DNA of 64,000 nt from Comamonadaceae bacterium (GCA_008080595.1 VIKI01000004.1:30212-94211), one strand, 5' to 3'; counted from the first letter of the stretch, positions 11,484 to 53,288 are shown. Notes: generated from the letters alone by a model not told the origin. A program made the numbers and translations.

Positions 11484-15246
<3,763 letters not shown>

Positions 15247-28517: not shown

Positions 28518-28892
28518 ATGCAAGGCCTGCACCTGACCGCTGATTTGCATCAATGCGCTTGCGAGTCGGCCTGGCTGTGTGATGCCCACCGGCTCGGCCA
28601 GCACTGCCTGCAAGCCGTCAGCGATGCCGGACTACAAGCCGTGGCGCAGCTTTTTCACACTTTCCCAGCCACCACACACGGCCCTGGTGGAATCACCGCC
28701 ACCGTGCTGCTGGCCGAATCACACCTGTGTATTCACACCTGGCCCGAGCAAGGTGCAGTGACGCTGGACGTGTATGTGTGCAATTTTGGTGGCGACCACA
28801 GCGCCAAGGCGCAGGCCCTGATGGACACGCTGTGCGCGCTGTTTGAACCCGCACTGATCACCCATTCCCGACTGCAACGCGGTTCGACCTAG
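28518..28892 (+). CDS. speD: S-adenosylmethionine decarboxylase-family proenzyme (pyruvoyl)
   Basis: LLAE/SHLCIHTWPE cleavage motif, DVYVC. Confidence 0.85.
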   Translation: MQGLHLTADLHQCACESAWLCDAHRLGQHCLQAVSDAGLQAVAQLFHTFPATTHGPGGITATVLLAESHLCIHTWPEQGAVTLDVYVCNFGGDHSAKAQALMDTLCALFEPALITHSRLQRGST

Positions 28893-38531: not shown

Positions 38532-38587
38532 CCGCGTTGTTTTGTAGCTGCTTGTGCTTGTTCTGAATGCGCTGTTTGCGGGTTCAC
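38532..38587 (+). repeat. Element R7
   Basis: CCGCG-TTGTTTT-GTAGC-TGCTT-GTGCTT-GTTCTGA-ATGCGC-TGTTTGCG. Confidence 0.75.
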
Positions 38588-38666
38588 TGCCACCGTTCGC
38601 AGCTTGCGGTGCTCCTGCAAGGCCAGGATAAGCTAACTATGGGCTTGTTCGCTTATCCGCGCTGGA

Positions 38667-38915
38667 TCATTGCTTGGTGGCCGCAGCTTTTTTATCTGCT
38701 GCCGCTTTGCGCTTGTCGGTCACGAGTTTGACGCATTGGGCGATTTCCTTCTTGTCTCCATCAAGCACTTCTTCACAGCATGTTTTTATGTTTCTTTTGT
38801 CCTTGTAGCACTGTTTGGCTGCATAGTCTGGATCAGCCGAATCAGCCAAAGACAGCTGTGCGAAGGTGGTCAGTGACAAGCCCAAAATGGCCGCAGTGAC
38901 GAATTTTCCAGTCAT
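38667..38915 (-). CDS. Small secreted Cys/Lys-rich hypothetical protein (82 aa)
   Basis: AAAGGAG RBS, signal peptide ending SLA, four Cys. Confidence 0.7.
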   Translation of the reverse strand: MTGKFVTAAILGLSLTTFAQLSLADSADPDYAAKQCYKDKRNIKTCCEEVLDGDKKEIAQCVKLVTDKRKAAADKKAAATKQ

Positions 38916-39076
38916 TTGAATACTCCTTTTAAAAACTACTGTTTGGTCAATGTCCACGTAGAGGTGATGGCAGTACGTGCATCGCCATCGCGAGCGTGTC
39001 GCCAGGAATGATGTGCCGTCGGGTCGCCACTGGTTGACCGCGTGCGCCGTACATCAGTGATTCAAATCCGAAGTGG

Positions 39077-42000
39077 TTACGATTTTGTGTTGGCGGTGGG
39101 TGTTGAGTTGGCGACTGGCTGCAGATTCCAGATTTCGACACAGTTGCTTGCCAAATTACAGCTTCTGTTGCTGGTCGTCAGTCTGTAATCGACACCCAAG
39201 TTAACAGTGTCGCTGCCAGAGATACCGCTCATTGCCCCGGTGAGTTTGACAGTTTGCTGATCCGCAATTTGCTGGGTTTTCTTATCTGTTTTGGTCCACA
39301 CACCTTGGACTGGCAGACTTACAAAATCAACCGAACCGCGCATGGTCGCTGGTAATGCGGTTGGCACAGTACCGCCGGCAGTTCCGATTTGACCAAAGTG
39401 CCCATATTGATAACCAGAAGCAAAGGCTGGATTTTGCGTTGGCGATGCCGTGTTGATGCCAGACAGCTCGTAGTCGTAGTTGGTGTCAAACCATTTTCCG
39501 GACATGGTTGACGTGCAGTTGTCGGTCAATTCAACCCAGTTCAGGAAACTGAGTTTGGCAGCCGACTTCAGATCATTGCGGCTGAAATTGACACTGCCGG
39601 TGGTGCGTACCGGGCAGGAAATATCAACCTTGCCATTCGGGTAGGCATTAGGCACAAAAGACTGCGTGATGGTTCCAGCCCATTGGGTAAGTGGCACCGG
39701 AAAACTTTGCAAGCCTTGGGTTTCAACGACCATAGGCCCGGCCAGGTTGGCAATGGATGCCGTGTTGATTTTGACTTCCCAGGGCAACCAGCTCCCTGGC
39801 ACCGCAGTCTGTTCCAAACCGTTGATAAAAATCTTTCCGGGTGTCTTTCCGAAGCTGTTGTCGTGGGCACTTACCGTGAGGGTGTAGACGTTGGTGCCTT
39901 GTGATGTCACGGTATTGGGTGGGTCGACATGAATGCCCGAAATGCTGGGCAACAGCGTCGCGTTGATCCCGGTACCCTGGACTACTAATTTCGCGGGTGA
40001 CGCAGGCGCTTCGTTGGGAGAAAAAACAGAGGTGTCGGTGGTTATTTTCAGCGTGTCGCGCATGTAATTAAAAATCGACGTGGCAGGCATGGGGCGTGCC
40101 GGTGGTGTCATGCTCAAGCTGTCACCGCGTCCCAGGGCGTAGTCATAAAACTTGGCTGCAGTTGTCGCGGCCCAATCTGCGCCAACTTCCTCATCAAAAC
40201 CAATCAAATTGACGGCATGGTTGGCGGTCTTGCTCTGCAGGGTAGACAGAAAGTTGAGCCAATTCATGCCGTCTTTGTAGAGCTCGCAGGCATCCACGTA
40301 GACCCAGGCATCTGCCGCAAAAGTCCAGTGCCTACGGATAAAATTTTTGCTAATGGCCCAATAGACATAGCCACCTTTTACCTGCGTTAATCGCAGATCG
40401 CCCTTATCCCAGAGACGCCCTAGTTCTGTCTTGACCATCTCGCTGTAGGGCGGTGTCTCTTTACCCATGAAGTGGTCGGCAGTGGCAAGGTAATAGCTTG
40501 GGTTTCCCCAGTGATCGGCTGAGTTGAAGCCATGGGTATCCAGGTGCAGCACAGAGACATCCTTCATGTCCGCCATGAGGTCGGCAACGAAGCTAAAAGA
40601 AATGCCTGCTTTGTACCCGGCCTGTTGAAGCCAGCCTGTCAATTGCGTAGGAAAGCCACGGCCCAGGCCATCGACATCCACCATCACAGCGCGTTTTTGG
40701 GTTGGACTAGGGCCACTTGCCGGTGCAATGGCCGCTACAGTTTTTGTCGTCAGGCTGGCCGTTGTGGATGTCGCTGTAGCCTTCAACGCAGTTGCCGGCG
40801 GGGTGGTCATCAGCCACGAGGTACCACGGCCGTCCTTGAAGCGCGCCCACACCGTGGAGTTGGAGCCAATGCCTGCGTCGGCAAATTCTGGCAGTGTGGG
40901 TATAAATGCCACCAGCTCAGCGCTGTCAGTGGCGACATTGCCCGTCGCCACCTGAGTCAAATGGTTACTGACTTTGGCCATGGCGGCCAGGCGTTCATCA
41001 AACGTCATGGAGACTGGCATGCCGCTCATATTCTTTGCAACAGCGAACATTGGACTGATGATTTCAAAGGTCAATGTCTGGGTGTTGGATGCGCCGTCTT
41101 TGTCGCTGGCCGTGATCTGGACACTGTAAGCCCCCCCCATCATGGCCGTCGGACTGGTGGCAGATGGCGTACCAGAAATCACACCGGTGCTGGCATCCAG
41201 CAGGATGCCCTCTGGCAGCGCACCATCGGTAATGGTGTAAGTCAGTATCGGGTCACCATCGGTCGCCGCCACATAGTTGGCCAGGCTCAGGTTGGCAATC
41301 GGTGTGCCAACCGCGCTCTCGATGTCTGGCAGCTCAGCCAGTATGGGCGGTATGGCTGTGGCAGCTGATGACACAGTAAACGCAATGGTCTTGGATACCG
41401 AGCTGCCATCTTTGTCGATCGCATTGACGGATGCACTGTAAGTGCCAGCTGCAGTGGGTATACCATCAATGATGCCCGTCAAAAGGTTCAGCCCCAAGCC
41501 GGGTGGCAAGCTGCCAGCCGAAAGCGTAAATCCCATGGGGTCACCGTTTGTCTGCGTGGCAAAGCCGGTCAGTCGCAGTGGTTCGCTCGCTGTACCTACC
41601 GTTGCGACTTGCGCCGGAATATCACTCATGAGCGGTGGCGATGTGGTGCTGACGGGCGTAGGCCGATTGATCCAGATGCCTTGGTTTGCCGCAATTGGCG
41701 TGGTACCAAAGTCCAGGTAATTGCGGCTGGTGATGTAACTGGCGAGACCACCACTGGATGCCAGGCTGGGCGCATAAAACAACCAGTTGTTCAGTGCGCT
41801 GTCCCAGGCCCACAGCGTGGTGACATTGCCCAGCAGCGATGTCAGAGCGGGGGCCGACAAGCCATCCGAAGTTGACGACAAATTCCACCCGGAAGTCAAA
41901 TTGGCAGCAGACAGCGAAAAGCCGATGCCGGACTGGCTGCCCAGGTCCAGTGGCAGTGCCGAGCTGTTGTTGACCCAGTAGCCTTCTCCAGGCTGAATGG

Positions 42001-42322
42001 TTGTCAGAACGCCATAACCTTTGCCAGCGGCATAAGTACTTAAGGTGCCGGCACTTTCCAGCGAGGGGGCGTAAAACGCCCAACTGCTTGTGCGGGCATT
42101 CCAGGTCCAGACTGAAGTGACACCTGGCTGGGCACCAAAAGTCTGTTTAACGTCGATGGGTGTGGTCAAACTATTGCCAAGCAGAGTCCATCCCTTGGCC
42201 AGGGTGAGCGGGTAAGACACCGGTGCAGCGCAGGCATTGGAGCCCCATGTCAACGCGGCGCAAAGCAGGCCACAAGCAATCACTGGATATACAGTGAGTT
42301 TGAATCGGATAGCTTTTACCAT
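39077..42322 (-). CDS. Large secreted protein: duplicated Trp-rich N-terminal domain, two putative Ig (He_PIG-like) domains, clan-CD-like peptidase motif region
   Basis: Signal peptide; GW...W.W...W.FYAP twice; LPPGL...GIIDGIP and LPEGI...GVISGTP; VLHLDTHG...VYVDAC. Confidence 0.8.
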   Translation of the reverse strand: MVKAIRFKLTVYPVIACGLLCAALTWGSNACAAPVSYPLTLAKGWTLLGNSLTTPIDVKQTFGAQPGVTSVWTWNARTSSWAFYAPSLESAGTLSTYAAGKGYGVLTTIQPGEGYWVNNSSALPLDLGSQSGIGFSLSAANLTSGWNLSSTSDGLSAPALTSLLGNVTTLWAWDSALNNWLFYAPSLASSGGLASYITSRNYLDFGTTPIAANQGIWINRPTPVSTTSPPLMSDIPAQVATVGTASEPLRLTGFATQTNGDPMGFTLSAGSLPPGLGLNLLTGIIDGIPTAAGTYSASVNAIDKDGSSVSKTIAFTVSSAATAIPPILAELPDIESAVGTPIANLSLANYVAATDGDPILTYTITDGALPEGILLDASTGVISGTPSATSPTAMMGGAYSVQITASDKDGASNTQTLTFEIISPMFAVAKNMSGMPVSMTFDERLAAMAKVSNHLTQVATGNVATDSAELVAFIPTLPEFADAGIGSNSTVWARFKDGRGTSWLMTTPPATALKATATSTTASLTTKTVAAIAPASGPSPTQKRAVMVDVDGLGRGFPTQLTGWLQQAGYKAGISFSFVADLMADMKDVSVLHLDTHGFNSADHWGNPSYYLATADHFMGKETPPYSEMVKTELGRLWDKGDLRLTQVKGGYVYWAISKNFIRRHWTFAADAWVYVDACELYKDGMNWLNFLSTLQSKTANHAVNLIGFDEEVGADWAATTAAKFYDYALGRGDSLSMTPPARPMPATSIFNYMRDTLKITTDTSVFSPNEAPASPAKLVVQGTGINATLLPSISGIHVDPPNTVTSQGTNVYTLTVSAHDNSFGKTPGKIFINGLEQTAVPGSWLPWEVKINTASIANLAGPMVVETQGLQSFPVPLTQWAGTITQSFVPNAYPNGKVDISCPVRTTGSVNFSRNDLKSAAKLSFLNWVELTDNCTSTMSGKWFDTNYDYELSGINTASPTQNPAFASGYQYGHFGQIGTAGGTVPTALPATMRGSVDFVSLPVQGVWTKTDKKTQQIADQQTVKLTGAMSGISGSDTVNLGVDYRLTTSNRSCNLASNCVEIWNLQPVANSTPTANTKS

Positions 42323-42549
42323 TTCTTCTCCTTATTGTGATGCTGAGACTGTCATGCAACTTTGCACCCGTTTCTGGATAGGGGGATGCAAGTTGTCTCA
42401 GTAAGGAAGGGAATCCCGCCCGCCCCGCACATAGTTGGTCATGTCAAGAAATGATGGTAGGCGGCATGGCCTGTTTCTCCTATAGTCCATTCAGACTAGC
42501 TCGCAATAAATGCTTGCAATGGGGACGCACTCAGGAGTAAGTTCGCTGC

Positions 42550-43167
42550 ATGTTGAACGCCAAAATTTTGCTGATTGACGACCATGCCATGTTTCGCACC
42601 GGGCTGCGCATGGTGTTGAATTCGGGCTTGCCCGATGCACAGATCGTTGAAGCGGGTTCGCTCAACCACGCCCTGCATCACGCACCTGAGATGCCGGACA
42701 TCGTTCTGTTGGACATCAAGATGCCAGGGCTGAGTGGGGTCGAAGGAATCGCTTTGCTCAAGCGCAAATGGCCGCAAGTTCCAGTGCTGATGCTGTCATC
42801 TCAGGACGAGCCAGAAACGGTGCACCTTGCAATGACCAGGGGTGCGGCAGGCTTCATTTCAAAGGTCGATACCGCCGACCACATCGTCGAAGTCGTTGTG
42901 CGCATCCTGCAGGGTGAATTCACCGAGCCCTTGGTTCAAGCGTTACATCACGAAAATCTGGTCGATACACCGACGCATTTGACTCCACGCCAATGCGAAG
43001 TGCTCGAGTTGTTGAATACCGGCATGTCGAACAAACTGATCGCCAAGCATCTATCGCTTTCTGAAAATACCGTGCGTGTGCATGTGCAAGGAATACTGGA
43101 GTTTTTGCAGGTGTCTGGCCGTTCCGAAGCTGTTTTTGTCGCACGCCAACGCGGCCTGCTGGGTTGA
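42550..43167 (+). CDS. NarL/LuxR-family response regulator
   Basis: IDDH receiver, LTPRQCEVL...SNKLIA...TVRVHV. Confidence 0.92.
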   Translation: MLNAKILLIDDHAMFRTGLRMVLNSGLPDAQIVEAGSLNHALHHAPEMPDIVLLDIKMPGLSGVEGIALLKRKWPQVPVLMLSSQDEPETVHLAMTRGAAGFISKVDTADHIVEVVVRILQGEFTEPLVQALHHENLVDTPTHLTPRQCEVLELLNTGMSNKLIAKHLSLSENTVRVHVQGILEFLQVSGRSEAVFVARQRGLLG

Positions 43168-43197
43168 TGAGGGGTACACGTTCTGAAGCTGACACAC

Positions 43198-44999
43198 TTG
43201 CTGCAGTTGGATGAGGATCGCTTTCTGGTCGAGCAGTTGCGATTGATCTTGGGTAACGTGGCCCGCACCGTCATCCCGGTCATTTCGCTGGCGATATTGT
43301 TGTGTGTTTTCCTGTCCAACGACAGCAATGCATGGGCGCTGAGGCTGTGGACTGTAGCGGCCATTGCATCCAATCTGAATGGCTACTTCTACACGCGGCG
43401 CCAAGTCCTTGGTGGCATTCCATCCGAACGGGCGCATCACATCGTCTGGATGCTGATGCTCCTGACGGCCATTGATGGTGCACTCTGGGCGGCATTGCCC
43501 TGGATCACCTTGGATACCGCCAGCCCGGCTGGCAGTATTCTGGTGGTTTCGGTCATTGCAGGCATGGCAGCCGGTGCCATGGCGACACAGTCTCAGGTGC
43601 TGGTCGTGTTCATTGCCTGTGTGATCCCGGAGATCGGCATTTCTGCCATGAAGGTTTGGCTTCGCTTCTCGGTGGTAGCCAATACCAGGCGCTGGCAATA
43701 GCCGCAGCGCTGTACCTTGCCGCTTTGCTGGGTCAGGCTCGCAACACGGCACAAGCCACACGTGCTGCCATACAACTGCGTTTTGACAACACCGAGTTGC
43801 TGGAACAACTGCGCTTCAAGACAGCGGTGGCCGAATCAGCACGACTTGAAGCCGAAGCTGCCAACAGTGCCAAATCAAAATTCCTCGCAGCCGCCAGTCA
43901 CGATTTGCGCCAACCGATCCATGCCCAGGGGCTATTTCTGGCCGTTCTTGCTCGCACGGAACTGACACCCCACCAGCAGGTGCTGCTCTCCAATGCACGC
44001 GCTGCGTCTGCCGACTCGAGGGACATGCTCAACAAGCTGCTGGATTTTTCGCGCATTGAAGCCGGTGTGATTGAGCCCAATCTGCAACCGGTTGGTTTGC
44101 AGTCACTGCTGCACAAGATTGAACGCGACCTTGCACCCCAGGCCAACGAAAAAGACCTGGTCTATCGCTCGCGTGAAACGCATCTATCGGTTCGCTCTGA
44201 TCCGGTGCTGTTGGAATTGATTTTGCGCAATCTGGTGTCCAACGCCATCCGTTACACCGAGCGCGGCGGAATTTTGGTGGCATGCAGACAACGCGGCGAT
44301 CAGGTGGTGCTGGAGGTCTGGGACACCGGCATGGGCATTGCCATCGAACAACAGCAAGCCATCTTTCGGGAATTTCACCAGTTGGGCAATCCGGAACGTG
44401 ATCGCAGCAAGGGACTGGGTCTTGGTTTGGCCATCGCGGAGCGACTGACGCAGAGCCTTGGACATCGCTTGTCGCTGGTGTCCACACCGCAACGTGGCAG
44501 CGTGTTTCGACTTGCCTTGCCTCTTGTGGATAGTACCCTGTCAAATCAACTGGAGCCCACGGCGCACATTCCGGTGCGCTTGCTGAACGCGCGGGTTCTG
44601 GTGGTGGACGATGATGCAGCGGTATGTTTCGGCATGCTCCATTTGCTGCGTGATTGGGGTTGCATCTGCGTCGCGGCGCAGTCCATTGAGGAAGCTCTGG
44701 TCATTGCCAATGAGCAAGCGCTTGACCTGCTCATTTGCGACTATCGCCTGCGCGGACACCGTACCGGTTCGGAATGTATCGTCGCTTTGCGAGCCCTGCT
44801 CGGGCAGGACAAGCCCGCACTGCTCGTCACCGGCGACACCGCACCCGAGCGCCTGCGCGAGGCGCAAGGCAGTGGCATACCGCTGTTGCACAAACCTGTT
44901 TCCCCTGGCCAGTTGTACCGGCGCTTGGTTGAGATACTTGAAGCCACGGCACTTGCCCCCGAAAGGGCACCCTCAGCTCCAGTTGCAACGCCCCACTAG
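43198..44999 (+). pseudogene. Membrane hybrid sensor kinase split by a 5-bp duplication
   Basis: GCTTC-GCTTC at 43659-43668; removing one copy gives continuous KVWLLGGSQYQ, joining the TM part to SHDLRQP/HATPase/receiver. Confidence 0.85.
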
Positions 45000-45126
45000 G
45001 CGCAGGTTGAGGTGCGTTACAGCTCGGATGTGCTGGCCGCTTTTCGCTCACGGGCGCAGGCTGGCAGACGTACCGAATCGCGGCTGGTGCCGCTCCTGCA
45101 AATGCCATCTCAGACATCTAAAAAAT

Positions 45127-45182
45127 AATATGATTTTGCTAGCTTGTTGCGCTTAACTGACAAGGCCTACAGGCTAATTCAA
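45127..45182 (+). repeat. Element R8
   Basis: AATAT-GATTTTG-CTAGC-TTGTT-GCGCTT-AACTGAC-AAGGCC-TACAGGCT-AATTC. Confidence 0.8.
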
Positions 45183-45549
45183 TACCGGCAGTACGGCCGT
45201 GCCGTTCACCATGAGCTCTGGCGGGGTCACGTCCAAAGGTGAACTGACATTTGGCTCCTGTATTTTCACGATCACTGAATGGCCTGTAGGTGCTAAGCTG
45301 ACCCCTCCACGGGTCTACACCATTCCCACGGAAAAATGCAAGATGACGGTGAATACCACCAATGCCAAGGCCGATGGCTCCACGGCTAACCGGGATGTCA
45401 CCTTAACGATTGGGCGGGAGTTAGGCAATCCGTTTCCATACCCGATCACAGTTGCCGCAGATGGGACTATCCGCGTAGTGGCCAATGGTAAGTCCTTCGC
45501 TACGCCACTTAAAGGTACCGTTGTTCAGATCACCGGCGCTGGCAACTGA
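45178..45549 (+). pseudogene. Probable 5'-truncated fragment of a beta-rich, Thr/Gly-rich exported protein gene
   Basis: Frame opens at the tail of R8 (FNTGSTAVPFTMSSGG...TFGSCIF); no RBS or signal peptide. Confidence 0.55.
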
Positions 45550-45658
45550 TCAAGCCACCTCCTGAACGGTCAAGGCAGCATCTGCACTTTGACCGTGACG
45601 CGCTGCCCTGAAGGCCAGACCTGCCAGGGCATCGCCACCCCTCTCCCACTCCACCCTC

Positions 45659-45790
45659 TCACGCCGCCCAGTGCCCGAGCGTGAACGCCTCCTCCAACAC
45701 CGAGTAGCCCGCCCAGTCACTGTGGGCAAAGTTCAGGCGCTCATGGGTGATTTGGAAGCACTCTTATTTTTGTAGCTGCTTGCGCTTATT
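45659..45790 (-). repeat. Diverged duplicate of the 3' end of the FAD oxidoreductase gene (direct repeat of 47447-47578)
   Basis: 132 bp, 10 mismatches by manual count; encodes ...FAHSDWAGYSVLEEAFTLGHWAA*. Confidence 0.95.
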
Positions 45791-45815
45791 AGACAAGCGC
45801 CAGAGGTCCATTTGA
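45760..45815 (+). repeat. Element R9
   Basis: ACTCT-TATTTTT-GTAGC-TGCTT-GCGCTT-ATTAGAC-AAGCGC-CAGAGGTC-CATTTG. Confidence 0.9.
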
Positions 45816-45941
45816 ACATCAACATGAGACTCGAAATCAACTGTGGCTTGCGCGTCTTGAGTCTGATCTCAAGGCCATCCCATAAACTCTGTGGGTCTGG
45901 CACCTGGATGTGAACCCGCTGTCCTTTTAACGCCCAAATTC

Positions 45942-45997
45942 ACGATGAAAACAGTAGCTGCTTGCGCAAGTGCAGCCTTGGCTGGAGACGAAAAATG
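45942..45997 (+). repeat. Element R10, abutting the AlbA_2 gene start
   Basis: ACGAT-GAAAACA-GTAGC-TGCTT-GCGCAA-GTGCAGC-CTTGGC-TGGAGACG-AAAAATG. Confidence 0.75.
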
Positions 45998-47434
45998 CAC
46001 TCAATGTCCGTGACCACCCTCCAGGCTCTGGTCGCCAAAGGTGAATCTGTGACGCTGGAGCTGAAAAAGTCCACCGCCGAAAAAGACCGCGCCTGTCGCA
46101 CCCTGTGTGCTTTTGCCAATGGGCAGGGCGGGCAATTGGTGTTTGGGGTTACGCCTGCGGGCAAGGTGATGGGCCAGCGCGTCACCGACCGCACGCTGGA
46201 AGAGCTGGCGCAGGAACTGCAAGGCTTTGAGCCGCCACTGTTTCCCCGCGTGCAGCGCATCCAAGTGGCCGATGGGCTGGAGGCCTTGCTGCTGGCGGTT
46301 GACCCCGCCACGCATGGGCCGGTGTCGTTTCGCGGTGTGCCCTATGAGCGGGTGCTCAACACCACCCGCGTGATGTCGCGCAGCACCTACCAAGCCCTGT
46401 TGCTTGAATCGTTACACGCCAGCCAGCGCTGGGAAACCCAGCCTGCCCCTGGCTGGAGCGTAGACCAGTTGGACACGCGCGAAATGGTGTTGACGCTGGA
46501 AGAGGCCATCCGCCGGGGCCGCAGCGTTGACCCCGGCACCCGTGACCCGCTGGAGATTTTGCGCGGGCTGGGGCTGCTGGTGGCGGGAGGGCAAGTGTCC
46601 CGCGCTGCGGTGGCCTTGTTTTGCCAGGGTGAGCAGCCCTTGCCCGATTTCACCCAACTCACCTTGCGCCTGGCCCGCTTCAAGGGGCGTGAACGCAACG
46701 AGTTTTTGGACAACCGCCAGTTTCACGGCAACGCCTTTGAGCTGATGCGCCGGGCCGAGCGGTTTTTGATCGACTGGTTGCCGGTGGCCGGGCGCGTTGT
46801 GCCAGGCCAGTTGCAGCGGGAAGACACCCCCAGTTTGCCGGTGGAGGCGCTGCGCGAAGCGCTGGCCAACGCCTTTGTGCACCGCGACTATGCCAGCGGC
46901 TCTGGAGCGGTGGCGGTGGCGCTGTTTGATGACCGGCTGGAAATCATTTCGTCAGGAGAGTTGCACTTTGGCCTGACCCCGGAGATGCTGTTCCAGCCCC
47001 ATGAATCCCGTCCCTGGAACCCGTTGATTGCCAGCGTGTTTTATCGGCGTGGTCACATCGAGAGCTGGGGTCGGGGCACATTGAAATTCATTCGCCTGAT
47101 GCAAGAGGCCGGGCTGACTCCACCCACACTGAAGGTGCAGGCGGGCTTTGTGACGGTGACGTTTGCCTTGCCCACCAGCCTTGTGCCCCGCATACAAGAC
47201 CGCACCTCTGGAAAAACGTCGGTGAAAACGTCGGTGAAAACGTCGGTGAAAACGTCGGTGAAAATTTTGGCCGAGGTACGCGAAAACGCGCAGATCACCA
47301 TTCCAGAGCTGGCCGCGCTGCTGGGCATCAGCACCCGCTCGGTGGAGCGCCAGTTGCGCCAGTTGCAGAACAACAAGCGCCTGGCGCGTATCGGTGCTGC
47401 CAAAGGCGGGCACTGGCAGGTGGTTGACCCATGA
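45995..47434 (+). CDS. Schlafen/AlbA_2 + HATPase_c_4 + HTH protein
   Basis: GESVTLELKKS, AFANGQGG..VFGV, REALANAFVHRDY, DDRLEIIS, IESWGRG, C-terminal HTH and GAAKGGHW. Confidence 0.88.
   Translation: MHSMSVTTLQALVAKGESVTLELKKSTAEKDRACRTLCAFANGQGGQLVFGVTPAGKVMGQRVTDRTLEELAQELQGFEPPLFPRVQRIQVADGLEALLLAVDPATHGPVSFRGVPYERVLNTTRVMSRSTYQALLLESLHASQRWETQPAPGWSVDQLDTREMVLTLEEAIRRGRSVDPGTRDPLEILRGLGLLVAGGQVSRAAVALFCQGEQPLPDFTQLTLRLARFKGRERNEFLDNRQFHGNAFELMRRAERFLIDWLPVAGRVVPGQLQREDTPSLPVEALREALANAFVHRDYASGSGAVAVALFDDRLEIISSGELHFGLTPEMLFQPHESRPWNPLIASVFYRRGHIESWGRGTLKFIRLMQEAGLTPPTLKVQAGFVTVTFALPTSLVPRIQDRTSGKTSVKTSVKTSVKTSVKILAEVRENAQITIPELAALLGISTRSVERQLRQLQNNKRLARIGAAKGGHWQVVDP
47213..47260 (+). 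repeat. In-frame 12-bp tandem repeat x4 (KTSV)
   Basis: AAAACGTCGGTG four perfect times in the linker before the HTH. Confidence 0.95.
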
Positions 47435-47446
47435 ACCCGCGCTGCC

Positions 47447-49078
47447 TCAAGCCGCCCAGTGCCCCAGCGTGAACGCTTCTTCAAACACCGAGTAGCCCGC
47501 CCAGTCGCTGTGGGCAAAGTTCAGGCTCTCATGGGTGATTTGGAAATACTCTGATTTTTGTAGCTGCTTGCGCTTATTCTGAAAGCTCTGAAGGCCAATT
47601 CCACCATCCATATTGGGCACCGGCACAGCCATCGCGTGGCCGTAGCGGGTGAGGTCGATGCGGCGGGTTTTGGCGGGCAGATCGGGGTGAGCTGCGCAGA
47701 GCTCGGCCAGAATCGCGTCGCGCCAAGTTGCCCACGGCTGCTCCAGCAGCAGGCGGCGGCCCGCGTGGCCCAGCGCCTCACCTGCACCGCCCAGATCACC
47801 CAGCGCCCGGTAATAGGTCAGAACCGTGGCCCCTGACACGCTTTGCAGGCTCTGGTGCATGGCATCGACATAGCCCAGGCCCGCGGCCCCATACAGCACG
47901 TTGTCCCAGCTCGGCGGTGCGCCGGGGCGGTCGTGCAAGGGCTGCTGGAGCTGAATATTGGCCACCAGCCACGGCGCGTAGACCGTGCGGGCCGCGGCCT
48001 GGCGCAGCCAGTCGGGCGGATTTTGCAGCACCCGGGCGGCCATAAAAATCGGCAGCGCCACAATGGCCCGGCGGGCTTGCCAGCGCTCCACGGCTTGGGT
48101 GGTGGTGTTGAACACATCCACCTCCACACCGTGTTTCAGGTTGGTCACGCGCAGCACCACCTGGCCGGTGTGCAGGCGTTGTTGCAAGGGGGCGGCCAGG
48201 CGGCGGGTGAGCCAGGCGTTGCCCTCGGGCCAGGTCAGCAGGCCTTCGCGCTCGGCGCTTTCCACACCCGGCGCAGCAAAGCCGTGGCGGCTGGCAAAGT
48301 AGTGGATACCGGCCCAGGCCGACACCTGGGCCAGCCCGGCCCCGTAGTCGTCACGGCAGCAGTAGTTCAGATACCAGCGCAGCTGCGGGTCGGTGAGCTG
48401 GTGCTGGTTCAGCCACGCTTCAAAAGTGAGAGCTGCCAGCGCTTGTTTAACGGGAGTTACAGGCGACTTTGATGCAGGCATGCTCCAGCGCTCGGTACGC
48501 CGCAGCTGCTCGATCCGCTGGGCGAATTGCCGGTATTGCGCCAGGGTGTCGGCCGCCACACCGTGCTGCGGCAGCAAGCCGTCTTGCCATTCGCCGTCGA
48601 AATACAAGCGCTCTTGCGGGCTGTGGCACAGGTGGCGCTCGTCATAAACCCAGCGCCCGGCCACGCGGCGGCGCAGGCCCAGCTCTTCCAGCAAGTCTTG
48701 CACTTCCCAGGCATCGTCACCCGGCAAGGGCAGGTAATGCGCGCCCTGCGGGCAGGCCATACCGCCCAGCTGCCCGGCACGGCTGTTGCCACCGGCGCTG
48801 TCTTCCAGCTCCAGCAGGGCAAAGTCTTCGATGCCTTTGAGTCGCAAGCCGCGGGCGGCGGCCAGGCCAGCCACACCGCCACCAGCAATCAGCACATCGG
48901 TCTGGCGCGTGCGGCTGGGGGTGGGCCAGGCCTGCGCTTTTTGCAGCAGGTGACCGCGCGCATGCCCGATGCCGGTGAAGCCACCGCTGATGTGGGCCCC
49001 ATCGGCCTGCGGCTGGCAGGCCGCCAGGGGCAGCAGGGCGGTGCTTAAAAACTGGCGTCGGTACATGGTGGGAGGCAT
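47447..49078 (-). CDS. FAD-dependent oxidoreductase (amine oxidase-like), Tat/lipoprotein-type signal
   Basis: RRQFL...LAAC, GGGVAG, GAHYLP, YCCRDDYG, FAHSD. Confidence 0.88.
   Translation of the reverse strand: MPPTMYRRQFLSTALLPLAACQPQADGAHISGGFTGIGHARGHLLQKAQAWPTPSRTRQTDVLIAGGGVAGLAAARGLRLKGIEDFALLELEDSAGGNSRAGQLGGMACPQGAHYLPLPGDDAWEVQDLLEELGLRRRVAGRWVYDERHLCHSPQERLYFDGEWQDGLLPQHGVAADTLAQYRQFAQRIEQLRRTERWSMPASKSPVTPVKQALAALTFEAWLNQHQLTDPQLRWYLNYCCRDDYGAGLAQVSAWAGIHYFASRHGFAAPGVESAEREGLLTWPEGNAWLTRRLAAPLQQRLHTGQVVLRVTNLKHGVEVDVFNTTTQAVERWQARRAIVALPIFMAARVLQNPPDWLRQAAARTVYAPWLVANIQLQQPLHDRPGAPPSWDNVLYGAAGLGYVDAMHQSLQSVSGATVLTYYRALGDLGGAGEALGHAGRRLLLEQPWATWRDAILAELCAAHPDLPAKTRRIDLTRYGHAMAVPVPNMDGGIGLQSFQNKRKQLQKSEYFQITHESLNFAHSDWAGYSVFEEAFTLGHWAA
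47548..47603 (+). repeat. Element R11, in frame near the FAD oxidoreductase C-terminus
   Basis: ACTCT-GATTTTT-GTAGC-TGCTT-GCGCTT-ATTCTGA-AAGCTC-TGAAGGCC-AATTCC, encoding IGLQSFQNKRKQLQKSE. Confidence 0.88.
48417..48472 (+). repeat. Element R12, second copy in the FAD oxidoreductase
   Basis: GCTTC-AAAAGTG-AGAGC-TGCCA-GCGCTT-GTTTAAC-GGGAGT-TACAGGCG-ACTTTGA. Confidence 0.7.
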
Positions 49079-49172: not shown

Positions 49173-50894
49173 ATGACGAAACCCCTTTGCATTGCGCTTG
49201 CCACCCCCAGGGTGTTGCGCTGGTTTGGGCTGCTGATGGGGATGCTGCTGTGGCTGGCCAGCACCCAGGTGCAGGCCACAAGCCTGAGTCTGGCGAACCT
49301 GCCGGACGGTGCGCTGGGGCAGTTCACCGAGTTTGATCAGGACGGCTCGGCCACGCTGGCGCAAGCGCAGCAGCGCTACCAGCAGGGGCATTTTCAGCCA
49401 GGCCAAGCGGCGGCGCTCAACTTTGGCCTGGGGGCACGCCCGGTGTGGGTTCGGCTGGCGCTCATGAACCCAACACCGCAGCCCCAGACTTATCGCCTGA
49501 GCCTGGGACCCAGCTGGACTGACCACTTGGCGGTGTCCCTGGTACAACATGGCCGCGTGCTGCAAACCTGGCAGGGCGGCGACGAACAGCCGGGTGCACT
49601 GGGGGTGCTTCCGGGTTTGAATGTGGGCTGGACAACGGCGCTGCCGCCCGGTGAGTTCGAGTTGTGGGTGCATGCGCAAAGCGATGACCCTTTGCAAATC
49701 GCCCTGCAATTGCACAGCCCAAGCCAGCTCGATCAGGCCCGGGTCACGGTGCATTACGCCTATGGTGCGATGTACGGCTTTTTGCTGGCGCTGGCGGTTT
49801 ACAACCTGGCGCTGGCGCTTGGGCTGCGCCAATGGCGGTTTTGGTTTTATTCGCTGTATCTGCTGTGTTTCATTGGGGCCAACATCAGCTACACCGGCCA
49901 CGGCTGGGTCTGGCTGTGGCCGGATCTGCCCGGTGTCCAGCGCTATGTGATTCTGGTGTTCATGGTGCTCTACGGTGTCACCGGGCTGCTGTTTGCCAGC
50001 CATTTTCTGAAACTGCCCCAACGCTTGCCCAGGGTGCAGCGGGGCCTGCATGCTTACGCATTACTCGCCTTGCTGGGCATGACCAGTTGTGTGGTGGCGG
50101 ACAGTCATCTGGCCGCCACCTGGCTGGCGTTTGCATTTGTCAGCTCGTTTTCGGTGCTGATGCTGGCGCTGGGGGCCTTTTCCCTGCGTGCCGGGCTGGT
50201 GGCCGGGCGCTACTTTTTTGCCGCCATGGTGGCGGGCTTGCTGGGCTCGATGCTGACCACATTGACGGTGGCCGGCTGGATTTCCTTCACCGCCATCCAC
50301 TTCCATGCGGTAGAAGTCGGCGTGCTGCTGGAAGCCACGCTGCTGGCCTTGGCGCTGGCGCAGCAATTCCGGCAAGATCAGATCAAGCGGCTTCAAGCAG
50401 AGTTCATGGCGCAGCACGATGCCCTGACCGGCTTGTACAACCGCCGGGCCTTTGTGGAGCTGAGCAAATCCAGCTGGGCTTTGGCACAGCGCAGTGGCCG
50501 ACCTTTGAGTGTGATGCTGCTCGACATTGACCACTTCAAACAGATCAACGACCAATATGGCCATGGGGTTGGCGACCAGGTGCTGGTGGGCCTCAGCCGC
50601 ACACTCGCCAGCAGTTGCCGCGCCGGCGATGTGCTGGCACGTTGGGGCGGCGAAGAATTCATTGTCCTGCTGCCAGAAACTGACCTGGAGGCCGCCCGCC
50701 TGCTGGCAGAGCGCATCCGGCAAGTTGTGGCTGACGAATCGGCCCGGTTTCAACACCCCCCAATGGCCTGCACCGTGAGTCTGGGTGTGGCGCAATATGT
50801 GGCCGAGACCCACCTGGAGGCCCTGATCGAGCGTGCCGATGCCCACTTGTACCAAGCCAAACGCAACGGGCGCAACCAGGTGGTCGCAGGGTAA
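49173..50894 (+). CDS. 7TM-DISM sensor diguanylate cyclase
   Basis: DISMED2-like periplasmic region, 7 TM helices, RWGGEEF; start moved to MTKPL to avoid overlap. Confidence 0.88.
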   Translation: MTKPLCIALATPRVLRWFGLLMGMLLWLASTQVQATSLSLANLPDGALGQFTEFDQDGSATLAQAQQRYQQGHFQPGQAAALNFGLGARPVWVRLALMNPTPQPQTYRLSLGPSWTDHLAVSLVQHGRVLQTWQGGDEQPGALGVLPGLNVGWTTALPPGEFELWVHAQSDDPLQIALQLHSPSQLDQARVTVHYAYGAMYGFLLALAVYNLALALGLRQWRFWFYSLYLLCFIGANISYTGHGWVWLWPDLPGVQRYVILVFMVLYGVTGLLFASHFLKLPQRLPRVQRGLHAYALLALLGMTSCVVADSHLAATWLAFAFVSSFSVLMLALGAFSLRAGLVAGRYFFAAMVAGLLGSMLTTLTVAGWISFTAIHFHAVEVGVLLEATLLALALAQQFRQDQIKRLQAEFMAQHDALTGLYNRRAFVELSKSSWALAQRSGRPLSVMLLDIDHFKQINDQYGHGVGDQVLVGLSRTLASSCRAGDVLARWGGEEFIVLLPETDLEAARLLAERIRQVVADESARFQHPPMACTVSLGVAQYVAETHLEALIERADAHLYQAKRNGRNQVVAG

Positions 50895-50920
50895 ACCCTG
50901 AGTTTCCAATCGCTTTGGAA

Positions 50921-50975
50921 CAAATCAGGCGGTAGCGCTTATCGCATAAGCGCAGGCAGCTCTGATATTTGCAGC
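50921..50975 (-). repeat. Element R13
   Basis: Reverse strand GCTGC-AAATATC-AGAGC-TGCCT-GCGCTT-ATGCGAT-AAGCGC-TACCGCCT-GATTTG. Confidence 0.85.
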
Positions 50976-51065
50976 ATAGAAGAGCGTAAATCCGTGCCAC
51001 TCTTTACAATCTTGTCCGCAGCGTTGGCGCACCCTTACTCCCCATTTTTTTCCCCGGACACGAGC

Positions 51066-52193
51066 ATGCAGCATCCACAAGGTATCGTCATTCACGGCTG
51101 GGCGGATGCCGATGCCGCGCACAGCCGCCAGCAGGTGCTGCAAGCCCTGCAAGCCACCGATCTGGCCGAGCATGTACACAGCCAGCTGGGTACCGATGCC
51201 CAGGGCGGCGTGTTTCAGCTCTGGCTCAGCCCGGCGCAAATCGCGCTCTGGGCTCCCGGCCTGGACACCTTGATGCTGGGGCAGAAGCTCCAACTGGACA
51301 TCGTCAACAGTGAAGCCGATCTGCTGCGCGAAATCGTCCTGACCCTGCTGATGGGGCCGGTGGCGTTTGAGTTTCCCAGCCTGGACGAGCTGCTGTCGGC
51401 GCTGCGCATTCGGCGCAACATGGTGCAGGCCGCCCGCAAGACCAACCTGGCCTTTCACACCAGCCAGGCCGAGCGGCCCGAAGACTGCTGGCGCTACGAC
51501 GAAGAGCGTGGCTTTGTCATCCGCGCCGGGGCCTCGCTGATTGACGCGCTGATCAAGGCTACCCAGCCCGAGGTGTCAGGCACGCTGTATGCGTTCTCTT
51601 GTTACCGGGCTTCTGAATACGTGATTGTGCTGGCCATTGCCCAGGAGCTGGCCCAGTGCAATCCGCCGCTGTACCAGCAGTTGCAAACGCTGTGGCAGCA
51701 GCGCCCGATTCGCTCCGGCGAGTTTCACGAGGTGTTTTTGCGTGAGCAGGGCAGCATGCAGGCCCCGTTGCCACCACGCTACTACGTGCCGGGGGACCGC
51801 ACCTGGTTTCGCAACCCGGACGGTGTGTCGGCCGAGGCCTCGGGCTTTGAGGGTTCCTGGGTGATGTACATGGGCGGCGGGCTGTTCACCAACTTCTGGA
51901 AGCGTGACCAGCCCTACACGCTGGAGCAAAAATGCCTGGAGATTTACCACTGGCGCAACGGCCTGTACTTCGACGAGGAAGGCGAAGAACGTATTGACGA
52001 AGACAAGGTAGACCAGCTGGTGGCGCAAACCCGGCAAGACCCGGCCGAGGTGGCACGCATCCAGGCGCTGATGCAGCGTTACCGCGAAGCACGCGGCATC
52101 TACACCGAAGCCGGTGGCTGTATTGACACCACCCGCGAGTTCGCCCGCTGGGTGCGCCCCGGCACGGCTGACCTGGTGCTGCCCGCGCCATGA
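51066..52193 (+). CDS. Tgl-like (protein-glutamine gamma-glutamyltransferase-like) protein
   Basis: LRIRRNMVQAA, WRYDEERGFVIRAGASLIDAL, YAFSC, PGDRTWFRNPD resemble Bacillus Tgl blocks, by recall. Confidence 0.65.
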   Translation: MQHPQGIVIHGWADADAAHSRQQVLQALQATDLAEHVHSQLGTDAQGGVFQLWLSPAQIALWAPGLDTLMLGQKLQLDIVNSEADLLREIVLTLLMGPVAFEFPSLDELLSALRIRRNMVQAARKTNLAFHTSQAERPEDCWRYDEERGFVIRAGASLIDALIKATQPEVSGTLYAFSCYRASEYVIVLAIAQELAQCNPPLYQQLQTLWQQRPIRSGEFHEVFLREQGSMQAPLPPRYYVPGDRTWFRNPDGVSAEASGFEGSWVMYMGGGLFTNFWKRDQPYTLEQKCLEIYHWRNGLYFDEEGEERIDEDKVDQLVAQTRQDPAEVARIQALMQRYREARGIYTEAGGCIDTTREFARWVRPGTADLVLPAP

Positions 52194-53239
52194 GGGAGGC
52201 CACTGCACCGCGCCAACTGCGCCTGGATCTGCTCAAACTGCTGTGTGCCCAGTGCATCATGCTGCACCATTTCTCGGTGTATGGGCCGTTTGCGCAAGCG
52301 CTGGAGCGCAGCGCACCGGCGCTCTCGGCCTGGCTGTTTGACTATGGCCGCATGGCGGTGCAGGTGTTTCTGGTGCTGGGCGGCTATCTGGCCGCGGCCA
52401 GCCTGCAACGCCTAGCCAGTGCCAGACCGATGCGCCTGGGCTCGGTGCTGTGGCGGCGTTATCTGCGCCTGATCGGGCCGCTGCTGGCGGCGCTGCTGCT
52501 GGTGAGTGCCGCCGCAGCGCTGGTGCGCCCCTGGCTGCAGGATGACTTTGTGCCCGCCGCCCCCAGCTGGGCGCAGGTGCTCAGCCATCTGGTGCTGATG
52601 CAGGATGTGCTGGGCATTGAGGCGCTGTCGGTGGGCGTGTGGTACGTGGCGATTGACTTCCAGCTCTATGCCTTGCTGGCGCTGCTGATCTGGCTGGGCA
52701 CGCGCGTACCCGCCGTGCCCCGGCTGACCCAGGGCTTGGTGGTAGTGTTGATGGGCGCATCCTTGTTTTACGCCAATCTTCAGCCGGATTGGGACGTAGC
52801 TGCGTTGTATTTTTTTGGCGCTTATGGCCTGGGGGTGATGGCGTATCAGGCGCAGCAAATGCCGCACCCCAAGCGCCTGCTGCTGGGGCTGACGCTGGTT
52901 GTGCTGCTGGCCTTGGTGTGGGCGTTTCGCGAGCGGCTGGTGCTGGCCTTGTTCACCCTGTGGCTGCTGGGCACTTTGCCTGCCCGCAGCCGGACCTGGC
53001 CAACTGGCGTTCAGCGCTGGGTGGGCCGGCTGGGTGGGTCATCCTATGGCTTGTTTCTGACCCACTTCGCGGTGCTGCTGTTGGTCAACGCACTGGTGGC
53101 GCAGTGGGGTGAGCTGGGGGCCGGCGCGACCTGGCTGGTGCTGCTGGCCAGTGTGCTGCTGTGCACTGGCTTGGGGCTGGCGTTTACCCGGTTTGTGGAG
53201 CAGCCCTTGGCGGCGCGTTTGGGGCTGGCGCGGGGGTAA
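52190..53239 (+). CDS. Acyltransferase-3 family membrane protein
   Basis: LDLLK...LHH, AVQVFLVLGGYL, RRYLRL, WYVAIDFQLY, SYGLFLTH, VEQP. Confidence 0.88.
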   Translation: MREATAPRQLRLDLLKLLCAQCIMLHHFSVYGPFAQALERSAPALSAWLFDYGRMAVQVFLVLGGYLAAASLQRLASARPMRLGSVLWRRYLRLIGPLLAALLLVSAAAALVRPWLQDDFVPAAPSWAQVLSHLVLMQDVLGIEALSVGVWYVAIDFQLYALLALLIWLGTRVPAVPRLTQGLVVVLMGASLFYANLQPDWDVAALYFFGAYGLGVMAYQAQQMPHPKRLLLGLTLVVLLALVWAFRERLVLALFTLWLLGTLPARSRTWPTGVQRWVGRLGGSSYGLFLTHFAVLLLVNALVAQWGELGAGATWLVLLASVLLCTGLGLAFTRFVEQPLAARLGLARG

Positions 53240-53288
53240 CGCCATCGCGGCTGCCGCCGCTCCTACAAACTTCAGGTCACACATCCGG

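Follow-up and report, generated by a model that had tools for sequence, protein, structure and literature searches.

Why does the end of one gene occur twice, once intact and once broken, on either side of a single other gene? The question is raised by a stretch of 64,000 nucleotides from a Comamonadaceae bacterium (GCA_008080595.1, VIKI01000004.1:30212-94211), called the window below and numbered from its first letter; its source assembly is a draft Rhodoferax genome of 322 contigs, 89% complete. The repeated gene encodes a flavin adenine dinucleotide (FAD)-dependent, amine-oxidase-like oxidoreductase of 543 amino acids (47447-49078, minus strand), 93% identical to Rhodoferax lithotrophicus MIZ03_0139. 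Its last 44 codons (47447-47578) recur as a displaced copy at 45659-45790, and between the copies lie 12 nt and an AlbA_2 gene, convergent to the oxidoreductase and the only gene that the 1788-bp insert encodes. We propose, with a probability of about 0.5, that the displaced copy is the inert bracket of a cassette inserted by homologous recombination without a dedicated recombinase.

Anatomy of the repeat pair

Base-by-base comparison confirmed the direct repeat reported by a first-pass annotation of the sequence: 45659-45790 against 47447-47578, 132 bp with 10 mismatches at an offset of 1788 bp. A repeat search called a single direct repeat, 45658-45825 against 47446-47613, at the same offset. 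Homology begins within 1 nt of the stop codon (TCA on the plus strand at 45659-61 and 47447-49), and the 9 nt preceding it are identical at three positions only; the flanks are unrelated. Nine of the mismatches fall in the 101-nt part that is purely coding and one in the 31-nt left half of a dispersed element described below; over the next 35 nt there are 15 mismatches, which is the family-level similarity of two element copies and nothing more. The coding part of about 100 nt occurs just twice in the 5.4-Mb assembly, the last ~50 nt belonging to the dispersed family, and the match has an E value of 1e-50 in a whole-assembly search, which excludes chance.

The functional 3′ end (47447-47547, minus strand; last 33 codons plus stop) lies 12 nt from the convergent AlbA_2 stop. 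Its displaced counterpart, a pseudo-3′ end (45659-45759, minus strand), holds the same 33 codons and stop with 9 differences in 101 nt. Translation of the displaced copy gives ...NKRKQLQK*ECFQITHERLNFAHSDWAGYSVLEEAFTLGHWAA*, still identifiable as the C-terminus but interrupted by an additional in-frame TAA and altered by two more replacements. That TAA, already seen in the first-pass annotation, stands at 45764-45766 (minus strand), where the functional copy has TCA (Ser), and kills the displaced frame. The pseudo-end has no present function; annotators should treat the 132-bp copy, now a dead relic, as a pseudogene fragment.

The source is a draft in 322 contigs, and a chimera formed at the repeat during metagenome assembly had to be considered. 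Contigs assembled from public sequencing runs do not support it. In run X1, a 2301-nt contig covers 44736-47036 with zero differences and a 337-nt contig covers 47385-47721; in run X3, from another study, a strain 95–98% identical to ours has one contig spanning 45509-45817, that is, the end of the adjoining block, the pseudo-end and the element. Logan contigs from two runs give both junctions exactly, and the longest exact run common to the two copies is 25 nt. No contig skipping the 1788 bp or joining across it was found in runs X1–X4, although this is not evidence of absence, and neither is the lack of cover over the pseudo-end in run X4, where AlbA_2 and the oxidoreductase are present. Misassembly is very unlikely, and we give it next to no weight.

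The second boundary of the repeat lies in a hairpin-containing element of ~53 nt that makes up 0.6% of the genome. An nhmmer model built from genome copies found 668 copies on both strands (a first-look search had given 222 candidates in the assembly), inside genes as well as between them, and no Rfam family matched it. One copy (47548-47600, plus strand) lies in frame within the oxidoreductase and encodes the peptide ...IGLQSFQNKRKQLQKSE..., which is ~70% identical across orthologues; this copy is therefore an old part of the gene. The corresponding copy beside the pseudo-end (45760-45815, plus strand) is a chimera. Its left half, to 45790, is 92–97% homologous to the gene, and its right half shares only ~57% with the in-gene copy. 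The two window copies stay highly identical as far as the hairpin loop, past which the displaced copy's half is orthologous to, and collinear with, an intergenic element in the closed genome G020, and not to the in-gene copy. A 130-nt spacer (45816-45945; 77% identical in G020) follows, and then a degenerate element copy directly upstream of the AlbA_2 start (45946-45987, plus strand).

Other copies of the element were seen in and around the gene. The oxidoreductase gene body has a second, weaker copy at 48419-48464, and the orthologue in genome G021 has a strong copy at a different position in the gene (L057 1725-1777). Genome-wide, neighbouring copies share an orientation in 57% of cases, without an excess of long runs; we therefore rejected co-orientation as a sign of a cassette array, since the run here (7 of 7, including 3 weak copies) is just mildly unusual. 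Two Y1_Tnp genes of IS200/IS605- or RAYT-like type (G000:C231:5789-6115 and G000:C14:1811-2140) each have one element within ~350 nt, and neither is flanked by the element on both sides; a relationship of the family to REP sequences and RAYT transposases is hinted at by these neighbours, which are suggestive only. Elsewhere in the source genome (G000:C96:4400-11900), at least 6 repeats of ~300 bp, spaced 1–3.3 kb apart and each with two inverted element copies ~200 nt apart, resemble a true repeat-punctuated cassette array.

The cargo gene itself (45992-47434, plus strand) encodes a protein with SLFN_AlbA_2, HATPase_c_4 (GHKL-like) and winged helix-turn-helix (HTH) domains. Its open reading frame (ORF) opens with TTG at 45962, and the likely start is ATG at 45992. 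PADLOC returned just weak matches to modules associated with prokaryotic Argonautes, and NCBIfam offered no name for the protein. A 12-nt tandem repeat (47204-47264) encodes four KTSV units between the ATPase-like domain and the HTH; it is shorter by 12 and 24 nt in the strains of runs X3 and X4, so the linker is polymorphic in length. In run X4 (a strain ~90–93% identical) a contig joins 47367 to 47447, up to the oxidoreductase stop codon, and so skips or replaces the last 22 AlbA_2 codons and the 12-nt spacer.

Recurrence of bracketed inserts

The same gene end is duplicated in two other Rhodoferax species. In G021 the repeat is 164 bp long, 95.7% identical and offset by 9488 bp, and the insert is a type I restriction–modification (R-M) island encoding HsdM, HsdS, HsdR, a Bro-N protein and YgjP. 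In G058 it is 196 bp long, 96.9% identical and offset by 1930 bp, and the insert holds two ORFs without a family. In both, as in the window, homology stops at the stop codon of the displaced copy. The limit inside the gene differs: it lies at about codon 500 of 543 in the window, in the middle of the element; at 488 of 546 in G021, at the element's outer edge; and at 462 of 528 in G058, 20 codons further upstream. Neither insert contains an integrase or transposase. Among 80 further orthologous loci a duplicated end was found in the G058 contig only, so the duplication is recurrent yet uncommon. In G021 the gene-attached copy (L057 2731-2760) has 8 extra codons and ends in …GHGAGLLLKQVAK, whereas the displaced copy ends in …GHGAG (12220-12222); the insertion has altered the C-terminal tail of the oxidoreductase in that genome.

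G058 has a relative with a near-empty site. In G038 the gene is 95% identical and only ~20 nt separate its stop codon from conserved downstream DNA. The two G058 copies differ at 12 sites: at the first five it is the gene-attached copy that agrees with G038, and at the last seven, including the terminal codons and stop (HYAV* versus HWAV*), it is the displaced copy. Past the stop codon, only the displaced copy's match to G038 continues. There is thus one switch in 12 sites, and by our count ~24 of the 4096 possible arrangements have at most one. It follows from this pattern that the displaced copy has the native terminus and native downstream DNA, and that the gene-attached copy ends in foreign sequence beside the cargo. 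As far as can be read from these alignments, the pattern is what one reciprocal crossover would leave if the resident end recombined with a copy borne by the cargo.

The gene end appears to receive DNA often. A convergent AdoMet_dc gene, the usual neighbour of the oxidoreductase, lies 18.5 kb away in the window (28518-28892, plus strand); the gap between the two is 2–131 nt in 12 other genomes and 0.6–9.5 kb in 21, and in many further genomes it exceeds 10 kb or the genes are unlinked. This variability marks the gene end as a hotspot for accessory DNA. A Pfam search of 28.5–52 kb of the window, including the insert, found no integrase or transposase.

AlbA_2 genes are bracketed elsewhere too, by other host genes. 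Among homologues taken from metagenome and genome contigs, we found an AlbA_2 gene bracketed by the 5′ end of an NAD-epimerase gene (L140, 492 bp; decayed in L142, 144 bp), the 5′ end of hsdR (L143, 201 bp; L172, 61 bp), the 3′ end of an alpha/beta-hydrolase gene (L150, 228 bp) and the first nine codons of the downstream gene (L155). The homology in these brackets starts at a start or stop codon, and the outer flanks are unrelated. Several Rhodoferax-type contigs have AlbA_2 directly between two co-oriented element copies. At L143 (5794-7606) the gene sits within a type I R-M operon, translationally coupled on both sides: the truncated hsdR′ ORF terminates where its stop and the AlbA_2 start share TGATG, and the stop of AlbA_2 in turn overlaps hsdR at its GTG start codon. 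Counting direct repeat pairs of at least 100 bp and at least 80% identity, spaced 0.8–4 kb apart, we found 8 in 0.22 Mb of AlbA_2 loci, of which 4 bracket the gene exactly, against 2 in 1.23 Mb of oxidoreductase loci used as controls, one of them G058. Distant homologues (32–50% identity) had no bracketing repeats within 1.5 kb; bracketing is a trait of the closer AlbA_2 subfamily.

The first-pass annotation had suggested looking for other element-containing genes with duplicated ends, and the source genome has them: at about eleven places both members of a nearby direct-repeat pair contain the element or have it at their edge, although only 0.6% of the genome is element sequence. We looked at four. 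At C304 (L166, G000:C304:4500-9800) a second paralogue with AlbA_2, HATPase_c_4 and HTH domains lies between 334-bp repeats (81% identical) with the element in each. At C32 (L165, G000:C32:43000-48500) an AAA_21 (AbiEii-like) ATPase lies between 331-bp repeats (90% identical) that comprise the 3′ end of an ABC-ATPase gene and the element. At C276 (L167, G000:C276:60000-64838) a Fic/DOC protein lies between 109-bp repeats containing the element, and the fourth, C159, involves a pair of high-potential iron–sulfur protein genes. Empty sites for the C32 and C304 cassettes were not found in G020, where the AAA_21 module stands at another locus without repeats.

Origin of the displaced copy

Our preferred account runs as follows. 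Incoming DNA would have carried AlbA_2 together with its own allelic copy of the last ~44 oxidoreductase codons and would have recombined into the resident gene end without any dedicated recombinase, most probably through one Campbell-type crossover, the incoming molecule being circular or circularly joined. The product would read, in order, gene body, element, working end, AlbA_2, displaced end and old downstream DNA. Because the gene would be left intact the insertion would be tolerated, and the displaced end would be free to decay, as its TAA suggests. The element copies inside the gene and upstream of AlbA_2 may represent the joint that closed or delimited the incoming piece, and repeats that are 92% identical would allow at most rare excision of the cassette. 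That the window went through the same process as G058, that the intermediate was circular and that the element played this part are conjectures drawn from comparison of these loci.

Two claims of the first-pass annotation bear directly on this account. It had described an integration-like scar of the attL/attR type. The recombination scar stands, and is not a plain tandem duplication, because the boundaries are a dispersed element and a stop codon and the copies look allelic; the site-specific analogy does not, since it implies a site-specific recombinase, none is present over 28.5–52 kb, and the internal boundary differs in the three cases. It had also proposed that a 1.8-kb piece carrying a related 3′ end and AlbA_2 had entered. 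Here G058 and G038 provide a precedent, but G020 already has AlbA_2 in place, so that a 7.2-kb block on the other side of the pseudo-end may be the newcomer instead.

G020 is collinear with the window from 45737 rightwards, through element, spacer, AlbA_2 (synonymous divergence (dS) 0.28) and oxidoreductase (dS 0.26), and has no match to the 7.2 kb to the left (38540-45736). This block up to the pseudo-end (38540-45658), which has no DNA match in G020, encodes a He_PIG immunoglobulin-domain protein, a LuxR-type response regulator, a hybrid histidine kinase and a fragment, orf116. On the left it begins at the very first base of a weak element copy (38540-38573, plus strand), and its right end is the pseudo-end. 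The fragment orf116, immediately left of the pseudo-end, found no relatives among metagenome contigs, matched none of the 143 other genomes of the genus at the DNA level, and belongs to no family of Pfam, PADLOC or NCBIfam. On the same side of the locus, the corresponding block of G020 terminates in a tyrosine recombinase (Phage_integrase plus SAM_4) followed by an IS91-family Y2 transposase (L044 6257-8470, equal to G020:C1:142256-144469), about 1–3 kb from the intergenic element upstream of AlbA_2; this unit may have remodelled that side. Beyond the oxidoreductase, 2.4 kb of the window (50895-53288) is replaced in G020 by ~235 nt; the segment starts at an element copy (50922-50972, minus strand) and holds a gene of the TGL family (protein-glutamine gamma-glutamyltransferase; 50994-52193).

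The displaced copy differs at 10 of 132 positions both from the window's functional end and from that of G020, and those two differ from each other by 2. At 96–97% identity to G020 the functional end is a local peak of conservation, and the region has two more such peaks. When the three oxidoreductase cases are pooled, the ratio of nonsynonymous to synonymous differences (pN/pS) between displaced and functional copies is 0.31, which departs from purely neutral divergence (p = 0.003). With neutral divergence between the window genome and G020 at ~0.27, ~13.6 differences would be expected in 101 nt since the split and 9 are seen (Poisson p ~0.13); a scar predating the split should look somewhat more decayed than the displaced copy does, but the difference is not significant. 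Most of its private synonymous states recur as polymorphisms in other orthologous ends; its codon 44 has the majority outgroup state, and its codon 12 is one step from a common allele and two from the resident one. Sliding-window identity against G020 revealed no extended tract of low divergence, and a recent import of AlbA_2 was rejected as a candidate.

Several of these comparisons weigh against our account. G020 lacks an intact pseudo-end. To the left of its element there is weak in-register similarity to the gene end (~62% over ~80 nt; 16 of 25 positions match, where none of ~455 other element copies exceeds 15, and local-alignment shuffles give p of 0.001–0.045), so that G020 has AlbA_2 with only a decayed vestige, and the fresher bracket in the window implies either a later re-integration or exchange of the cassette or the arrival of the 7.2-kb block. 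A single ancestral insertion without such later events leaves the 7.6% divergence of the window copy unexplained. Strains lacking exactly the 1788 bp, which the first-pass annotation had proposed to look for, were not found in 144 genomes of the genus, 80 orthologous loci or four sequencing runs. Comparison of both 3′ ends with 43 orthologous ends, also its proposal, left codons 12 and 44 as the only informative positions, a signal too weak to decide the matter. The pN/pS of 0.31 is only weakly different (p ~0.1) from that of an in-situ duplicate with one selected and one neutral copy. The switch in G058 could reflect older mosaic alleles and not the insertion crossover. Finally, the run contigs gave no sign of a circular intermediate, none of them joining across the 1788 bp.

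If the 7.2-kb block was the newcomer, it would have come from the downstream side of a donor's oxidoreductase, dragging the last 33 codons along and landing beside a resident AlbA_2; the segment would have run from one element copy to the element inside the donor gene, replacing or entering the DNA on the left. Collinearity with G020 that breaks only to the left, a left edge at the first base of the element at 38540 with the right edge in the chimeric element, and another synteny break with G020, at 50894, that also abuts an element all favour such an event, as do the 9–10 differences in the pseudo-end against about 13–18 expected for a scar older than the split and the hint of another allele at codons 12 and 44. 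The exact bracketing of AlbA_2 would then be a coincidence, yet AlbA_2 is so bracketed in many unrelated contexts; no genome or metagenome contig was found with the block or orf116 beside the oxidoreductase, and in G058 it is demonstrably the cargo between the repeats that is new. We regard it as unlikely on balance, although it is the alternative that we take most seriously. The same G058 termini count against a purely local origin, in which unequal exchange between co-oriented elements and later deletions would have left a decayed gene end without any foreign DNA: one reads HWAV* and the other HYAV*, two distinct alleles, of which one agrees with G038, the relative with the near-empty site. 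In favour of such exchange are two element copies that are direct repeats 1.8 kb apart, a slight genome-wide excess of co-oriented neighbours (57%) and the pN/pS that does not depart significantly from the one-neutral, one-selected model. It needs a further deletion whose end falls precisely on the stop codon, and events bounded by a stop codon would have to be repeated in G021 and G058, and events bounded by a start codon at L140 and L143. Neither the 12-nt spacer nor the 3′ end of AlbA_2 is duplicated. We consider such a local origin improbable.

Just as improbable, in our estimate, are decayed attL and attR ends of a site-specific element that was mobilised in trans or lost its integrase part, like a cis-mobilisable element. 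Replacement of a 3′ end with displacement of the native copy is the classical footprint of gene-end integrases, the interval between the oxidoreductase and AdoMet_dc is a hotspot with spacings from 2 nt to >10 kb across species, and G020 has its tyrosine recombinase and IS91-type transposase near the intergenic element. That recombinase, however, is part of an IS91-like unit absent from the window; none of the three inserts encodes an integrase, nor does the window within 18 kb, the gene-internal boundary differs per case so that there is no common core, and the AlbA_2 brackets elsewhere are unrelated genes, at 5′ and 3′ ends alike. Insertion of AlbA_2 between a resident gene end and its own copy of that end remains the reading we prefer.

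Comparison with known systems

Some gene-end integrative elements rebuild the gene they enter, as do islands in tRNA genes and e14 and phage 21 in icd of Escherichia coli. There, as proposed here, an element-borne end replaces the native end, which is displaced to the far side; those elements use a tyrosine integrase and a fixed core, whereas here there is no integrase and the crossover limits vary. A closer formal match is Campbell-type insertion–duplication, in which a non-replicating circle with a gene fragment integrates to give fragment, insert and intact gene. The form of the product is identical, with both copies chimeric around the crossover, as in G058 compared with G038; the difference is that the circle here would be a matter of conjecture.

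Two types of array or diversification system were considered and set aside. An integron cassette array lacks support, as there is no IntI, and the element's ~668 copies are scattered over the whole genome, on either strand and also inside genes. A diversity-generating retroelement was rejected: no reverse transcriptase domain was found, and the 10 differences are spread over all four bases, A accounting for at most 4 of them whichever copy is taken as template. The minimal mobile elements and recombination hotspots of Neisseria (discussed in PMC3787668) resemble the gap between oxidoreductase and AdoMet_dc in having a site between conserved genes, cargo that varies by strain and no mobility genes; exchange through flanking homology leaves no duplication there, and a duplication is present here. 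As for the cargo, prokaryotic defence proteins that combine Schlafen and GHKL-ATPase domains are known, for example SLFN-pAgo (bioRxiv 10.64898/2026.05.29.728809) and Cash proteins (PMC13462974). The predicted SLFN_AlbA_2 and HATPase_c_4 domains suggest a likeness to these; our gene differs in standing alone, with a C-terminal winged HTH and no link to Argonaute or CRISPR.

Among known systems the nearest is insertion with long target duplication, described for R-M genes (Nobusato et al. 2000, Gene 259:99; Furuta, Abe & Kobayashi 2010, PMC2853133). Those insertions are flanked by variable, imperfect direct repeats of host sequence, 46–423 bp long, and encode neither transposase nor integrase; in many of them the repeat runs across a start or stop codon, which leaves the host gene intact, and betaproteobacterial cases are included (PMC2853133). 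Our loci share with them a defence-type cargo between long imperfect host repeats without mobility genes, and the insert at the same gene end in G021 is itself a type I R-M island. Judged by the features that Furuta et al. used, the window has host repeats longer than 30 bp (132 bp, 92% identical, offset 1788) around an insert shorter than 20 kb without a mobile-element gene; it lacks R and M cargo, and no empty site was found for it among the genomes, loci and runs searched, whereas for G058 a near-empty site is at hand in G038. The differences are that the cargo in the window is a single AlbA_2/Schlafen-type gene without R and M genes, that one repeat limit lies in a dispersed element embedded in the target gene, and that the copies look allelic and not freshly duplicated. 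One proposal ties long target duplication to DNA breakage by the R-M enzymes themselves (PMC2853133); with a single AlbA_2 gene as cargo, such dependence cannot apply here.

Long target duplication has been on record for R-M genes since 2000. To it this locus adds one host gene with three cargoes in three species, a boundary in an embedded dispersed element and the single switch between G058 and G038. For the window itself the outcome is modest, a pseudogene fragment to be annotated; more broadly, the footprint extends to a Schlafen-type gene and other non-restriction cargo, and the reciprocal chimerism of G058 and G038 suggests ordinary homologous recombination, the donor having brought along a copy of the target. 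We suggest tentatively, and with less confidence than for the window alone, that long target duplications could be the two chimeric products of one crossover between a resident gene end and the allelic copy on a circularised foreign DNA, with the 53-nt element as the joint in Rhodoferax, and that AlbA_2, AAA_21 ATPase, Fic and type I R-M genes may circulate as recombinase-less cassettes that land in gene ends without breaking them. If so, this would explain how small defence genes enter chromosomes without a mobility gene and leave host genes undamaged, and would give annotators a simple rule by which to recognise such cassettes.

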